Origin: Promethearchaeota archaeon
Lineage (GTDB): Archaea > Asgardarchaeota > Lokiarchaeia > Sigyniarchaeales > SOKP01
NCBI GenBank assembly: GCA_019058445.1
Contig: JAHPZA010000004.1
Span: forward strand, 354,184 to 418,183
DNA length: 64,000 bases
Direction: 5' to 3'
The position numbers and the translations under genes were made by a program. Under the pieces are notes generated by a model that did not search any database, was not told where the DNA came from, and worked only from the letters and a program-made list of their open reading frames with translations. This document shows, piece by piece, positions 29,047 to 53,248 of the stretch; the first letter of the stretch is position 1, and every line of letters begins with the position of its first letter.

Positions 29047-29382
29047 TTGATAGTCATATTCGTAGACAATATTGAAGATTTTATCTCATTCTTAAATAAG
29101 CGGGTTATGAATGAAGTATTTTATGAGATAAAACGATCAAAATCGAAAGACGATCTTTCCAGTGATGTTAAAATTGAGTTAATTTTACATTTTCTTTCGA
29201 AAGTAGAAGAGTTCATGGTACTTTTCGAAACAAAAGTCGAAATCTCTAAATCAAGGGATCCAACTTCAAAGGAACCTCAAGAAATCATTGATGAGTTACA
29301 AAAAATTATCAATCAAGTAGATTCATCAATAAGCTTAATTAAGGGAAAAATAAGGGAGATTTATCTTTCATTCTCAACATAA
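29047..29382 (+). CDS. Hypothetical protein
   Basis: 111-aa ORF co-oriented with the previous gene. Confidence 0.6.
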   Translation: MIVIFVDNIEDFISFLNKRVMNEVFYEIKRSKSKDDLSSDVKIELILHFLSKVEEFMVLFETKVEISKSRDPTSKEPQEIIDELQKIINQVDSSISLIKGKIREIYLSFST

Positions 29383-29455: not shown

Positions 29456-31059
29456 CTATTGATTGTGATTTAGGTTTACACCATACCCAATCAATCTATA
29501 TCTTCTATTGATAATTCTAGAAATAGCAAATATAAAATTTTCAGCAGGACAGATTGGGGGATTTAATTTAATAACAACACTATCTTTTAATAATTTGGTA
29601 ACCACTCCTCCAGTTTTTTCGGTACCCACAACTAACAATAATTTTTCATTATGTTTAAGCGCATGGACTTTAATCATATTTTCTGAACCTATTACCCTGT
29701 CTAATAGGTGGACTTTCAATTCAATTTCTGAAAGGATTTCCGGTAAATTTCCCGGTTTTCCAACTAAATGTCCAATTAAGGAGTCTCCCTTAGTAAGCGC
29801 AGGATCTAATTTTGTGCCAAGACCTATAAGACCCCCAGGTTTAGCTTCTTCTAAAAGATTATTACCTTGACTAATGCTTACAACAGTAGTTTTTATGGGA
29901 ATATATTCATCCTTTATATGCAATCCTGGTCGAATTTCAATTTGATCACCTACTTTAATTTCTCCCTTTAATACTGATCCACCAATTACCCCTCCTTTAA
30001 GTTCCTCAATATCTTTCCCGGGTCTATTGATATCAAATGAACGGGCGATCAAGAATTGGAATTCCTCTTCTTTACTCAGCTCTGGAGAAGGTATTATCAG
30101 TTCAAATGCTTCAACCACAGCATCGATATTTGATCCAAAAACAGCAGAGGTGGGAATAATAGGTGCATTTTCGGCTACAGTCCCCCTTACAAATTTTCTA
30201 ATTTGATTGTAATTCTCCAAAACTCGTTCTCTTGAAACAGCATCAATTTTATTTTGGATAATAATAATGTTTTTTATTCCAGCTATATTTAAAGCTGCTA
30301 AATGCTCTCTTGTTTGAGGTTGGGGACAAATTTCATCTGCGGCAATCAATAGACACGCCCCATCCATTAGCGAAGCGCCACTTAGCATAGTTGCCATCAA
30401 TATTTCATGCCCAGGAGCATCTACAAAAGAAATATTTCTCTTAAATTCCAATTGCCCTTTACAATCGGGACAGGAAAATCTGGGTTCACCCTTTTTTCTT
30501 TCTTTTTCGGCCATATATGCAGTTAAATAAGAATCACAAGAAGGGCAATAGAGAATAGTAGCATTTGAATAACCCAATTTTATTGAGATTCCCCGTTCTT
30601 GTTCTTCTGAGTGCCTATCAGTCCAGTCCCCTGTTAAAGATTGAACCAACGTGGTTTTTATGGGAAATGCCGAAACGACATTATCATACCATGGTCAACA
30701 TGACCGACTAGACCGATATTGCATTCAGCTTGCCTTTTTATAAGGTCCTTAAGATTAGTGGCCTCCTTAGAGGGTTTTCTTTTTACTGATTTTTCCTCTT
30801 TCGTGATTGCATCTGCTTTTTTTGGCTCTTTTTTTTGAGTTTTGTCTTTACCTTCTTTATGTTCTAATTCTTTATGTAATTTTTTAGCGCTATTAATGTA
30901 TTTTTCTGCGGTAGCCTTTCCGATACCTTTAATTTTTAACTTTACTAAATCTTCGGGCTTCAATGAAGCTAATTTTTGAACCGTATCTATTCCAGCCGCT
31001 TTCATTCTTTCAGCAGTTGCTTTTCCAATGCCACTAACATTTTCCAAGCGATCTTCCAT
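29456..31059 (-). CDS. eif2g: Translation initiation factor aIF2-gamma with N-terminal (HhH)2 extension; spliced CDS = complement join(30687..31059, 29456..30657), 524 aa
   Basis: Exon 1 ends QAECNIGLVGHVDHG; exon 2 continues KTTLVQSLTGDWTDRHSEEQERGISIKLGY, DAPGHE, QPQTREH, QNKID, RSFDINRPG, RLIGYG; 373+1202=1575 nt in frame. Confidence 0.9.
30658..30686 (-). other. 29-nt BHB/BHL-type mRNA intron in the aIF2-gamma P-loop
   Basis: Central helix AUGG/CCAU, bulges UA^U and AA^A, intron hairpin GA(U)AAUGUCG-UUU-CGGCAUUUC; removal gives GGU AAA ACC ACG (GKTT). Confidence 0.85.
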
Positions 31060-31569: not shown

Positions 31570-32268
31570 ATGGCAAAGAAAAAGGATGCAAAAGAGAAAA
31601 ATAAGTATAACGAGCTCTATGATATTGGTCTAACGGATTCAGTACTTAAAAGATTAAAACAGTTCAAGAAAATTATTGATATAGGTAGAGAACTATTTGG
31701 TTCACGAGGCTCATACGGATTTAGTACACATGAATTAGCAAAACAATTACATATGTCACAAGGGAATATATACAATTATGTAGAGAGTAAGAGAGAATTA
31801 TGGTTAGCGATAAGGAAACAAGATTATAAAGAATATAAAAATGAAATCAAAAGTATGATAGACAACCATGAAGGTTCTTATATTTCACTTTTTAGAAAGT
31901 TGGCAGTCTTTTTTCTTGACTTTGCCAAAAACGAGCGCCATAAATTTCAAATGATGTATTTAATACCTGTCCCTCCTTCTAAAAAACTTGGAAAAATAGA
32001 AATAAATTATGAAGCACATTATCCACAATATCTCTTAAAGGAAGTCATAGAGAAAGCAATCGAAGCAAAAGAAATAATCGATGTTGATAGTACTAAACTC
32101 TCATGTTTATTGTTTGCTATGATGTATGGCATCGCAGCAGCAGAAACAGGACTTAGCTTAAAAAATCCTATTCAAGAACCTTTATTTGCTCCTGAAGATG
32201 CAATTAATCCCCAAGAATTTAGAGAATTTTCCTTAGATTTTATATTTGATATTATCAAAAGGAAATAA
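31570..32268 (+). CDS. TetR/AcrR family regulator
   Basis: FSTHELAKQLHMSQGNIYNYVESKRELW HTH. Confidence 0.88.
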   Translation: MAKKKDAKEKNKYNELYDIGLTDSVLKRLKQFKKIIDIGRELFGSRGSYGFSTHELAKQLHMSQGNIYNYVESKRELWLAIRKQDYKEYKNEIKSMIDNHEGSYISLFRKLAVFFLDFAKNERHKFQMMYLIPVPPSKKLGKIEINYEAHYPQYLLKEVIEKAIEAKEIIDVDSTKLSCLLFAMMYGIAAAETGLSLKNPIQEPLFAPEDAINPQEFREFSLDFIFDIIKRK

Positions 32269-33047: not shown

Positions 33048-35231
33048 ATGTTTAAAATTTCTTCTAAAAAGTCCCTCTATTTACTGTTTCTATTGTTTAT
33101 TATATTCCCATCCGTAATTCTTAATTATTCTCTTTTAGAGGGAACTATTCCAAATTCTTCGATTTATATAAATGTTGTAGCAGATAGTGAACCTGATGTA
33201 GATATGAGGGAATTGCCAGATTTTCCTTACGATGAATTAAATGAAATGTGGTATGATCCAAAAATTGAAATGCTTATTATCACACCAGATGGAAGACAAG
33301 ATTTTGTGAATGCTTGCAAACCATTAATGGAGTGGAAGAATGAGAAAGGAGTAAAAACAATTATTTTAAGCAATTTCTCTAGTTACCCGGGAAGAGATGA
33401 TCAAGAGAGAATTCGTAACATGATCAAATCTTATTATGAAGAAGAAAATATTCAATGGGTTCTTCTAGCAGGAGATGCCCAAAGTGATTTAATCCCTATA
33501 AGAGAAGTGCTAAATGATGATGTGGGATTTTGGGGTCAATCGGAAAAAGTGGGGGGTGATAATTATAAACCGACAGATTATTATTATGCTGATTTAACAG
33601 GTACCTGGGATAATAACGGTAATGGTGTATATGGTGAGTCTACATTTAAAACTGGAGGGCAAGATGAGATCGATTGGATCCCTGAAGTCTATGTCGGTCG
33701 TTTACCTGCTAGTAATGCAATTGAACTTAGTGAAATGATTAATAAAACTCTGAAATATGAAACAGATCCATATATTGAGAATTGGATGGGCAATATGCTA
33801 CTTGCTGGTGGTGTTTCAGATGTACCAGGAGAAGATGATGATGTTGATGGTGAGGATGAAGCCCGTTTAACAACATATATCTGGCAACATTATACTCAAT
33901 ATGAAATGAATTTCACTCATCTTTGTAATTATAATGCCGCCTATTATACACCTCCAGGCACTCATTCAGAATTAAATCAAAATAATTTCACTAATTCATT
34001 TAATTCTGGCTATTCCACTGTATTATTTGCAGGTCACGGTGATATTGGAGCATATTCAGATAAGATCGGTGTAAATACTTTTCGCACAATTTATACCTCT
34101 ACCGATGCTAGTGCAAGCAGCAATATAGACATGCCATCATTGATATATGCTGATGCTTGTAGTACCTCCACTTTCGATTATAATGATAATAGCATTGGAG
34201 AGATTTTAATAAAGAGGTCTAATTCAGGAGCTATTGGATATGTTGGTTCCCTGCGAGTCACATGGTATATACCAAATGATTTGGATCTAGAAATTTTGAA
34301 TAGAGCAAACGCAAAATTATTTTGGGAGGAATTTTTTCAAAATAAAAAATTTCAGCAAGGTAAAGCATTATATGACTCAAAAGTTACATATATGAATAGC
34401 GATTATTTTAAAGACGAGCGTGTTAATGCTGAGGACTATGATGAAGCTGAAAGAAAAAATCTATTAACTTATTGTTTATTAGGCGATCCCGAAGTTGATA
34501 TTTATACAGATAAACCTGCGAATGCCTCAAATCCATTCACTCAAGACATTTACGAGGGTCAATTAATAACTACAATAATAAGAAACATTAATGGTAAAGC
34601 GGTTCCTTATGCGAGAGTAAATTTAAAAACAACTGATAAAAAATATCGTACTGTTTATAGTGATATCAATGGTAGAATAAGCTTTCGCCTTCCGGCTCAA
34701 GCGTATGAAAATTATAATGTAACAATAACGGGACACAATTTGATCCCCACTTATTTCAATTTCACGACTTTACCGGATAATAGCAAACCTAACTTTATTG
34801 ATGAAAAATGTACTCCTAAAGATCCTACAGTATCCGATAATATATGTTTCGAAATTGAAGTCGATGACTCTGAATCCGGAATTGAAAATGTGTATTTGTT
34901 ACAATCTAAAGATAAAGACTTCGAAACGTTTAGCTATTATAAGATGGTACATCGTTTCGAAGATAATAAAGATGAGTTTAAATATACGATAAATAAATTA
35001 GATCCGGGGAAATATTACTTTCTAGTCGTTGCGAGAGATTGGGCTAATAATAAAGAAATATTAGAGGATAAGAGTTTTAAAATCTTAATACAAAATCCTA
35101 TTATGGATTATGTACTCGTTACCTCATTAATTATGGTAATAGCTTTATTATGTATATCAATTTTTACAAGTTATAATGGAAGAAAACAATATCAACGCAA
35201 AATCAATAAGTTAAAATTAACTAATAATTAA
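33048..35231 (+). CDS. Membrane-anchored peptidase C25 (gingipain) family protein
   Basis: VLLAGD, TDYYYADL, VGRLP, catalytic FAGHG and ADACS, LLGDP; N-terminal signal and C-terminal TM. Confidence 0.88.
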   Translation: MFKISSKKSLYLLFLLFIIFPSVILNYSLLEGTIPNSSIYINVVADSEPDVDMRELPDFPYDELNEMWYDPKIEMLIITPDGRQDFVNACKPLMEWKNEKGVKTIILSNFSSYPGRDDQERIRNMIKSYYEEENIQWVLLAGDAQSDLIPIREVLNDDVGFWGQSEKVGGDNYKPTDYYYADLTGTWDNNGNGVYGESTFKTGGQDEIDWIPEVYVGRLPASNAIELSEMINKTLKYETDPYIENWMGNMLLAGGVSDVPGEDDDVDGEDEARLTTYIWQHYTQYEMNFTHLCNYNAAYYTPPGTHSELNQNNFTNSFNSGYSTVLFAGHGDIGAYSDKIGVNTFRTIYTSTDASASSNIDMPSLIYADACSTSTFDYNDNSIGEILIKRSNSGAIGYVGSLRVTWYIPNDLDLEILNRANAKLFWEEFFQNKKFQQGKALYDSKVTYMNSDYFKDERVNAEDYDEAERKNLLTYCLLGDPEVDIYTDKPANASNPFTQDIYEGQLITTIIRNINGKAVPYARVNLKTTDKKYRTVYSDINGRISFRLPAQAYENYNVTITGHNLIPTYFNFTTLPDNSKPNFIDEKCTPKDPTVSDNICFEIEVDDSESGIENVYLLQSKDKDFETFSYYKMVHRFEDNKDEFKYTINKLDPGKYYFLVVARDWANNKEILEDKSFKILIQNPIMDYVLVTSLIMVIALLCISIFTSYNGRKQYQRKINKLKLTNN

Positions 35232-51946: not shown

Positions 51947-53248
51947 GTGGAAAAACAATTGTTAAAAAAAACTAGTTATGCTCAAGCAATAAATGACGAA
52001 ATTCTTGAGAAGCTTAGCCTGAAGAATAGATATGCCTGGGTGAATAATAATCTTCAATCGATTTTGACAACGGAACAATTTAATTTCTTTAGAAAAGTTC
52101 AAAGATTTTGTTTAAAATTTGAGAAGAAACACGATATTACTCATAAAACAGATGAGGATATTTATTCATGGATTCCCGAATTTGGAGCAGAAGGTTATAT
52201 TACCAGAGCTCATAGTTTTGAATGTTGTGATTTAAATCAAGACCCACATGGGGCAGTTCCTGACTTTTTAAGGAACCTGGCAATGGATATGTTCGATCCT
52301 CAATTTGCAATGGCAGGTGGGGCAACTGTTCTCGCAATCAACCCCGTTCATGAACATCATGAAAATATTCCCGTGAGACTCGAGGCTATGAAAGAATTGG
52401 CTACTGGTAAAACTCCAGGAGCGATTTGTATAACAGAACCTGAGCGAGGATCTGATGCGGTTCACATGCTTACTACTTGCGATGAGCAACCAGATGGAAG
52501 TTTTTTGCTTAATGGAAGAAAAATATTCAACACGAATGCGCCAAAATCAAAATGGATTGTCGTATATGCGACTTCTGAGCAAAATAACGGAAATACCATG
52601 GCACAATTCCTCGTTAATAGTGAATGGGATGGATGGAATTGTGAACGGGTTTTCATTCCGTGGGTTCCTAAAGTTCACTTAGGACATGAAACTTTTGAAA
52701 ATCTAAGAGTTCCAAAAGAATATATTTTAGGAGGTATCGGAAAGGGGCGTGAACACCTCTTTGAGGGTTTAGTACCTGAAAGAATAGGTATAGCCGCTAT
52801 GGGCATATCCGAGTCTTGGGGAGCTCTTTCTTTTGCCGCAATCTATGCAAATATGAGAAAACAATTTGACCAAGAGATTTTAAAATTCCAAGGTGTCGGA
52901 TTTCTCCTTTCAGAATTATGGGCAAAAACTACAAATCTCACATGGGGAATATTTAAGTTCATTGAAAATTATGACGAAAAAATGGAAAAATTTGGTGGTC
53001 AATTACCTCCAAATATCGCACGAGCATTAGTTGCTTCTGCATCCCAGTTTAAATTTCATTGTACGGCACTTACTAAGGAAGTATGTTATGAATGCGCCAA
53101 TTTGATGGGTGGAGCTGGCCTCTGTGATAATACCTTGATGCATGACCTTTTGAATATTTCTCGAATCCAAGAAATAGTAGGCGGTTCAAGGCAGATCCAA
53201 CAGTATATTATGAGTATGGCTCTCAGGCAATTATTTAAGATGATTTAA
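51947..53248 (+). CDS. Acyl-CoA dehydrogenase
   Basis: ITEPERGSD, LNGRKIF, RKQF..ILKFQGV, MGGAG. Confidence 0.9.
   Translation: MEKQLLKKTSYAQAINDEILEKLSLKNRYAWVNNNLQSILTTEQFNFFRKVQRFCLKFEKKHDITHKTDEDIYSWIPEFGAEGYITRAHSFECCDLNQDPHGAVPDFLRNLAMDMFDPQFAMAGGATVLAINPVHEHHENIPVRLEAMKELATGKTPGAICITEPERGSDAVHMLTTCDEQPDGSFLLNGRKIFNTNAPKSKWIVVYATSEQNNGNTMAQFLVNSEWDGWNCERVFIPWVPKVHLGHETFENLRVPKEYILGGIGKGREHLFEGLVPERIGIAAMGISESWGALSFAAIYANMRKQFDQEILKFQGVGFLLSELWAKTTNLTWGIFKFIENYDEKMEKFGGQLPPNIARALVASASQFKFHCTALTKEVCYECANLMGGAGLCDNTLMHDLLNISRIQEIVGGSRQIQQYIMSMALRQLFKMI

Follow-up and report, generated by a model that had tools for sequence, protein, structure and literature searches.

We analysed a window of 64,000 nt (positions 354,184 to 418,183 of the forward strand of contig JAHPZA010000004.1, assembly GCA_019058445.1) from a Promethearchaeia archaeon, i.e. 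an Asgard archaeon of the Lokiarchaeia type. The subject is the gene for the gamma subunit of archaeal translation initiation factor 2 (aIF2-gamma), which lies on the minus strand of this 498-kb contig (the assembly has 4.6 Mb in 10 contigs and is 92.6% complete) and is interrupted by 29 nt in the codons of its Walker A motif (the P-loop), where gene callers would see two open reading frames (ORFs) of 133 and 397 residues. An earlier note on this DNA, made from the letters and their ORFs, had read the 29 nt as a bulge-helix-bulge (BHB) intron in the pre-mRNA, of the kind cut by the tRNA-splicing endonuclease EndA, and our results very probably bear this out.

The split gene and its 29-nt insert

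By equivalog and domain matches, the split gene is assigned to aIF2-gamma. Exon 2 alone scores 528 bits against NF003077 (cut-off 315) and 519 bits against TIGR03680 (cut-off 514.5), and contains the Pfam domains GTP_EFTU, GTP_EFTU_D2 and eIF2_C, while exon 1 matches HHH_5 (E = 2.5e-12). The unspliced frame of the minus strand reads ...QAECNIGLVGHVDHG and onward through MIMSFRHFP to a stop, and KTTLVQSLTGDWTDRHSEEQERGISIKLGY... resumes in a different frame, i.e. the gene is split at GHVDHG/KTT by a frame-shifting, stop-bearing insert just as the earlier note had it. Deleting the 29 nt in silico joins GGU-A to AA-ACC, after which the frame is open over 524 codons up to the stop and the Walker A motif GHVDHGKTT is restored; the predicted spliced junction is CAUGGUA/AAACCACG, and the predicted protein spans the split as ...VGHVDHGK/TTLVQSLTGDWTDR.

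As seen in Table 1, the unconstrained minimum-free-energy fold of 76 nt consists of exactly a central helix, two 3-nt bulges and an inner hairpin. These are the elements that the earlier note had drawn (AUGG/CCAU, bulges UA/U and AA/A, a 9-bp inner hairpin), and its cuts after the second base of each bulge give GGU AAA ACC and the intact 524-residue frame on our side too. For the outer helix the agreement is partial: the weakness that it described holds, and its GUU/AAC pairing is one possible register, whereas relatives use another (Val-Asp with Lys-Thr-Thr codons). In that family consensus register only G30699:C30651, U30698:A30652 and G30696:C30654 pair here. The codons GUU GAC and AAA ACC leave the 3' bulge without its two neighbouring pairs on the exon side (C.A and C.A), and the BHB motif of this genome is a relaxed, HBh'-like form.

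Table 1. Coordinates of the exons, the insert and its folding elements in the window
Feature	Positions	Strand	Description
Exon 1, aIF2-gamma	31059-30687	minus	124 codons plus first base (A) of the Lys codon; HHH extension, Lys/Glu-rich linker, start of P-loop (GHVDHG)
Intron (putative), 29 nt	30686-30658	minus	phase 1 (within the Lys codon); in-frame stop UAA and frame shift
Exon 2, aIF2-gamma	30657-29456	minus	last two Lys bases, TTLVQ... to stop; rest of G domain, domain 2, eIF2-gamma C-terminal domain
Central helix, 5' strand	30692-30689	minus	AUGG (His-Gly codons); 4 bp in the unconstrained fold
Central helix, 3' strand	30663-30660	minus	CCAU (inside the intron); unconstrained fold
5' bulge, 3 nt	30688-30686	minus	UA/U; predicted cut 30687/30686
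3' bulge, 3 nt	30659-30657	minus	AA/A; predicted cut 30658/30657
Inner (intron) hairpin	30685-30664	minus	2 bp, one bulged U, 7 bp, loop UUU; unconstrained fold
Outer helix, exon-1 half	30699-30693	minus	GUUGACC (Val-Asp codons plus C of His); weak here, 3/6 pairs, none adjoining the bulge
Outer helix, exon-2 half	30656-30651	minus	AACCAC (third Lys base plus Thr-Thr codons); family consensus register

The earlier note had also named checks on the copy number of the gene and on the raw reads. Our search found a single aIF2-gamma locus in the 92.6%-complete assembly, the next matches (E = 1e-12 and 1e-9) being other GTPases, and relatives have one aIF2-gamma-like match per genome, including 17 out of 17 high-quality genomes. 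The insert is crossed without a gap by DNA contigs of the source run, of a second sample from the same study (X2, record 11) and of an unrelated soil study (X3, record 23), and is therefore not an assembly artefact. One contig of the probable source run spans the whole stretch, and the source sample contains a further contig with a diverged copy of the gene in which the insert is likewise present.

We note that the aIF2-gamma proteins of this family share an N-terminal extension of about 125 residues (HHH_5 plus the Lys/Glu-rich linker), with frames of 520-540 residues. The linker region diverges far faster than the G domain (35-66% vs 92-98% identity in near-identical genes).

Same-site inserts, covariation and selection in relatives

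Of 109 aIF2-gamma loci that we fetched, 19 (16 of them distinct) are interrupted precisely between GHVDHG and KTT, by 29, 30 or 32 nt. Using a covariance model then built on these inserts, we were able to find the insert in 30 of the 135 species genomes of the family (9 of 13 genera), which answers the question, raised in the earlier note, of whether other Asgard aIF2-gamma genes have inserts at this position. The 27 distinct insert sequences (29, 30 or 32 nt) all lie between GLVGHVDHG and TTLV. In a phylum-wide sample, 9 of 25 genomes of the same family and none of 125 genomes in 26 other families match the model, which was trained on this family alone. Every insert in the intron-bearing relatives stops or shifts the frame, and a read-through product would have 2-13 residues added within the Walker A loop.

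Apart from structure, the inserts are poorly conserved in sequence, as would be expected if only the shape matters. According to the covariation test on the 16 distinct sequences, 79.8% of cells are paired, as compared to 60% in shuffles (0 of 500 shuffles reach the observed value) and 41-55% when the 3' partners are slid; including the outer helix, the values are 80.6% vs 65.9%. The central helix is 93.8% paired and shows one double compensatory change (ACGG/CCGU), and all nine pairs of the inner helix have changes on both sides among relatives; its two closing pairs are retained in 15/16 and 16/16 sequences. The strict hBHBh' form calls for helices of 2 bp or more beside both bulges, on the inner side (9 bp here) and on the outer. 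We conclude that all three helices of the predicted motif covary. The strict-form outer helix is present in relatives with GAU and AAG codons, and in four loci (L016, L017, L022 and L097) it consists of 6 bp with one bulged A. Its pairing potential is built into the codons, with Val-Asp (GUN GAY C) facing the last base of Lys plus Thr-Thr (R ACN AC), and the amino acids dictate its invariant pairs.

The junction itself tells more about the enzyme. EndA is established to cut the BHB motif after the second base of each bulge, as both bioRxiv 10.64898/2026.10.13.758758 and PMC5829648 restate. The 5' bulge is AAU, UAU, AAC or AAA in the 27 distinct introns, and five of these (among them those of L012, L016 and L059) have no contiguous AAA or AAG 3' of the insert, such that the Lys codon can be rebuilt solely as A/AG by cuts after base 2 of each bulge. 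A junction uniquely fixed at the EndA cut positions is, in our judgement, the strongest sequence argument for this enzyme.

Synonymous codons around the insert differ between carriers and non-carriers. His is CAU in 15/16 carriers vs 34/81 non-carriers (p = 1.7e-4), Lys is AAG, which closes a C:G pair beside the 3' bulge, in 11/16 vs 20/81 (p = 1.1e-3), and the Val/Thr third-base pair is formed in 56% vs 30% (p = 0.048); these p-values are rough, as carriers are scattered on the tree yet kin.

Relaxed selection on exon 2, which the earlier note had named as evidence that would speak against an intron, is contradicted by the ratio of nonsynonymous to synonymous substitution rates (dN/dS). It is 0.044-0.07 for exon 2 of this gene against its closest intron-free relatives, 0.05-0.23 for other intron-bearing genes and 0.08-0.12 for intron-free pairs. 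Exon 1 is open (111-148 codons) with a conserved N-terminus in 15/16 intron-bearing loci (the L113 locus ends inside the open frame). Exon 2 is thus under strong purifying selection, and both exons are intact and selected, pointing to a gene in use.

A predicted BHB intron, its enzymes and the alternatives

Taken together, site conservation, covariation, fixed junctions, selection, the single copy and the presence of RtcB and EndA in the lineage support the proposal that the 29 nt are a BHB (tRNA-type) intron in the pre-mRNA of the sole aIF2-gamma gene, cut by EndA and joined by RtcB, and we consider this very likely. The transcript would fold such that the AUGG of the His-Gly codons pairs with CCAU near the 3' end of the insert, leaving a 3-nt bulge on each strand; EndA, of the two-paralogue (alpha-beta)2 type in this lineage, would cut after the second base of each bulge; and RtcB would ligate the exons to give GGU-AAA-ACC, the Walker A motif and the 524-residue protein. 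The unspliced message would yield only the 133-residue N-terminal fragment. We infer excision in the cell, and the enzymes responsible for it, from the gene and its relatives. With a BHB intron in its sole gene, synthesis of aIF2-gamma would depend on EndA and RtcB; splicing as a regulatory step in aIF2-gamma expression is possible but unsupported.

RtcB is encoded in the genome (574 bits), as is an EndA paralogue (C9:770310-770918, L033; TIGR00324, 89 bits), and both EndA paralogues are found in 23 of 25 relatives. The catalytic triad of EndA is known from the Methanocaldococcus jannaschii enzyme. Several observations weigh against the intron as read here. In an alignment, L033 has Phe and Glu/Asp where a relative's higher-scoring, alpha-like paralogue has the catalytic Tyr and His, and it looks like a structural (beta-like), non-catalytic subunit. 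No catalytic EndA was found in the 92.6%-complete assembly, where PF01974, PF02778, NF007085, phmmer, jackhmmer and tblastn with the relative's catalytic paralogue gave only C9:770310-770918; we attribute the gap, by assumption, to the missing ~7% of the genome. RNA contigs of the one metatranscriptome found to contain a close relative (X20), 94-97% like the gene, cover only 29606-30007 and 30881-31026 and not the junction. Taken singly, the sequence folds no more stably than its shuffles do (z = -0.54), i.e. it is not significant by energy and significance rests on the 27 distinct homologous inserts. The two missing pairs beside the 3' bulge belong here too, and in 5 of 16 relatives the unconstrained fold favours a competing exon-1 hairpin (CCAUG...CAUGG) over the central helix. 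As for the geometry, the endonucleases of Asgard archaea are described as (alpha-beta)2 enzymes with an L1 loop giving broad specificity, with relaxed motifs allowed (PMC5829648).

The hairpin that competes in these relatives is a property of the coding sequence: the Gly-His-Val-Asp-His-Gly codons (30689-30703, minus strand) can self-hairpin, as CCAUG...CAUGG in relatives with GGC/GGG and as GGUCA...UGACC here. This self-hairpin could affect folding or the timing of splicing.

Three of the points just listed (RNA contigs that do not reach the junction, the catalytic EndA not found in the assembly and the weak outer helix of this genome) would also fit removal of the insert from the RNA by another nuclease and ligase or by a self-cleaving activity, the BHB-like shape being incidental. 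We regard this as improbable: the conserved features (bulges of 3 nt, a spacer of 4 bp and cleavage past the second base of the bulge) are precisely those that EndA recognises, 29 nt are too small for a ribozyme and nothing but structure is conserved, and relatives encode both EndA paralogues while nothing points to a different enzyme.

Still less probable is translational recoding, in which the ribosome bypasses the insert or frameshifts over it as in T4 gene 60, with no RNA splicing. A bypass would take off at GGU, and the 3' end of the insert offers neither GGU nor any other GGN codon for landing; after a frameshift, 9-10 foreign residues would remain within GxxxxGK(T), and inserts of 29, 30 and 32 nt would demand different shifts. 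The stable hairpin after the Gly codon and a stop in or just past the insert would fit recoding, but the covariation of the His-Gly codons with the 3' end of the insert is not required by hopping.

A broken gene (whether a pseudogene, a product of sequencing or assembly errors, or a gene for two polypeptides made separately) is about as improbable as recoding, for although gene callers would give two ORFs and 92.6% completeness leaves room for a second copy, the insert recurs in DNA contigs of three samples and in 30 species, dN/dS of exon 2 is 0.04-0.07 in this gene and 0.05-0.23 in other carriers with exon 1 conserved, relatives (17/17 high-quality genomes included) have one aIF2-gamma-like locus each, and two chains with the Walker A loop divided between G and K cannot bind GTP.

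Intron history, other split genes and known systems

We traced the history of the intron with a quick maximum-likelihood tree, built from 97 distinct exon-2 proteins; it comes from a short search and follows the gene rather than the species. The 16 carriers require 15 state changes, of which well-supported branches force at least 8, and they cluster no more than they do when the labels are shuffled; near-identical genes differ by an exact 29- or 30-nt indel. One shallow clade contains three loci with clearly related introns (L112, L109 and L104), and nested among them, with branch lengths of 0.01-0.05, three without (L098, L103 and L114), the alignment showing an exact 29-nt gap in an exon 2 that is otherwise 92-98% identical. 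This nesting and the exact gap indicate that the intron predates the clade and was lost precisely at least twice within it; the remaining patchy distribution in the family presumably reflects similar losses. A sequence type UGA...UUUCG...CAUUUCCYAUAA, seen by eye in several genera (g1, g2, g4, g8 and g11), fits an old intron with many losses, and either fast divergence or separate gains could account for other types (the 30-nt form and the CGAGUUGG form).

Similar inserts occur in other genes of the same genome. EF-2 (C10:684116-684145, minus strand; L117, exon 1 at 2347-2529 and exon 2 at 250-2316) has a 30-nt insert in switch I (...QLQMTD / SDDEEQERGITI...) with an ACAG/CUGU central helix, 3-nt bulges and a perfect 9-bp hairpin, and the Pfam GTP_EFTU profile continues across the gap. 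BHB-shaped inserts of 30 nt are also found in a ChlD-like AAA+/VWA chelatase (C9:269043-269072, minus strand, L118), at MNPE/EGELRPQ, and in a Sir2-family protein (C9:775863-775892, minus strand, L119), at ELHG/NMYYMKC, where an AUGG/CCAU central helix again involves His-Gly codons. All three have a 4-bp central helix, 3-nt bulges and a strong hairpin, with Pfam profile coordinates that are continuous over the gap.

In relatives, the covariance model finds BHB inserts of 30-32 nt at the equivalent H-G/K site of the P-loop in genes named by NCBIfam as EF-1alpha (L131, genome G011), aIF5B and an EF-2 paralogue (L132 and L135, genome G024), and EF-2 and an EF-2 paralogue (L133 and L134, genome G012). 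Inserts at this site are thus found in four paralogous GTPase families, likely because its codons supply half of the motif. A broader and more tentative idea, which we hold to be possible though rather doubtful, is that in Asgard archaea of the Lokiarchaeia type the Walker A codons (GAY-CAY-GG/A-AR-ACN) of translational GTPases act as a hot spot for BHB mini-introns of 29-32 nt, with repeated gain and precise loss in aIF2-gamma, aIF5B, EF-2, the EF-2 paralogue and EF-1alpha. If true, it would call for an active pathway of intron insertion and deletion (e.g. reverse splicing by EndA/RtcB, then reverse transcription and recombination) in the prokaryotes most closely related to eukaryotes, and would make the core translation machinery and part of the metabolism of such lineages dependent on mRNA splicing.

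For a genome-wide census, we looked on both strands for BHB cores that, when taken out, fuse two open frames of 60 codons or more each. It gave 148 hits with the true structure vs 123-165 with slid 3' partners, and 783 vs 909 and 714 with a looser filter; paralogues spanning the junction did not separate the two either (15 true-structure hits vs 8-12 control hits). Noise from gene junctions swamps the signal, and we therefore give no intron count for the genome. The scan nonetheless pointed us to the three split genes described above. Searching the genome with blastn-short revealed no copies of the intron elsewhere. A 20-nt match of 95% identity at C6:423833-423852 splits no reading frame and is due to chance, and a weak covariance-model match at C9:538121-538149 (L121) is a coding repeat of His-x-Asp-His units (HIDHIDHFDHIDHVDH...) in a low-complexity, His/Asp-rich protein rather than an intron.

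The closest known system is the cbf5 pre-mRNA intron of Crenarchaeota, reportedly the subject of work by Watanabe in 2002 and Yoshinari in 2006. Yokobori 2009 (PMC2738675) describes this intron in Desulfurococcales and Sulfolobales as one that is spliced in the living cell and that at least two lineages have lost. Both cases are short BHB-type introns inside an essential protein-coding gene with a role tied to RNA or translation, with a two-subunit-type tRNA-splicing endonuclease (removal being predicted here), and share a patchy distribution with precise lineage-specific loss, for cbf5 as described in PMC2738675 and for aIF2-gamma in the shallow clade. They differ in the gene, the lineage (Asgard) and the site (Walker A codons), and in that cbf5 splicing was demonstrated by reverse transcription PCR whereas it is predicted here. 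Here, unlike in cbf5, paralogous GTPases of relatives have inserts at the equivalent site too, and several other genes of the same genome contain similar ones.

With the BHB introns of archaeal tRNAs and rRNAs (Marck and Grosjean 2003; bioRxiv 10.64898/2026.10.13.758758), the predicted intron shares motif geometry (hBHBh' in relatives, relaxed here), size class and presumed enzymes, and with the tRNA introns of Asgard archaea also the many gains and losses (bioRxiv 10.64898/2026.10.13.758758). The host RNA is a messenger here, though, such that the cuts must also preserve the reading frame.

Eukaryotic HAC1 and XBP1 mRNAs are cleaved by Ire1 at two stem-loops in a stress-regulated switch, and in metazoans the exons are ligated by RtcB. 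Like these, the aIF2-gamma mRNA would be spliced by protein enzymes independently of the spliceosome, and its intron alters the reading frame of the product; the resemblance is one of chemistry only, not of membership, as Ire1 acts at stem-loops and EndA at a BHB.

Our literature search, which left subscription-only papers outside, found no report of a BHB intron in aIF2-gamma or in any protein-coding gene of Asgard archaea. The recent preprint on Asgard introns covers tRNA genes only (bioRxiv 10.64898/2026.10.13.758758), and a 2025 paper on archaeal splicing endonucleases cites only three cbf5 papers for pre-mRNA. Published splicing of protein-gene mRNAs by tRNA-splicing enzymes in archaea thus comes down to one family, cbf5 of Crenarchaeota. 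On the evidence of its sequence family, the aIF2-gamma insert is best described as a genuine BHB-type intron that is conserved and lies in an essential gene, of a kind known but very rare.

Such an intron would sit in an essential Asgard translation factor at a place where function demands exact removal, and translation initiation in these cells would depend on EndA and RtcB. Gene callers split or truncate such genes, affecting Asgard annotation and completeness estimates. Presence and absence among near-identical genes provide a natural system for studying intron loss and gain in archaea, and the recurrence at the P-loop of four GTPase families suggests that exon sequence may predispose a site, which bears on intron spread in the lineage ancestral to eukaryotes.

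As to the rest of the window, Pfam detected no homing-endonuclease gene inside or beside the intron-bearing gene, and the 29-nt insert, too short to house one, does not count as a mobile intron of the homing-endonuclease kind. A candidate of the genome-wide scan near 52,630 (plus strand) proved to be a false positive inside an intact 433-codon ORF (an acyl-CoA dehydrogenase by sequence reading alone). Convergent with aIF2-gamma is a 111-codon ORF (29047-29382, plus strand) with no Pfam match, and other neighbours include, besides further ORFs without Pfam matches, a TetR-type regulator (31570-32268) and a C25 peptidase (33048-35231).

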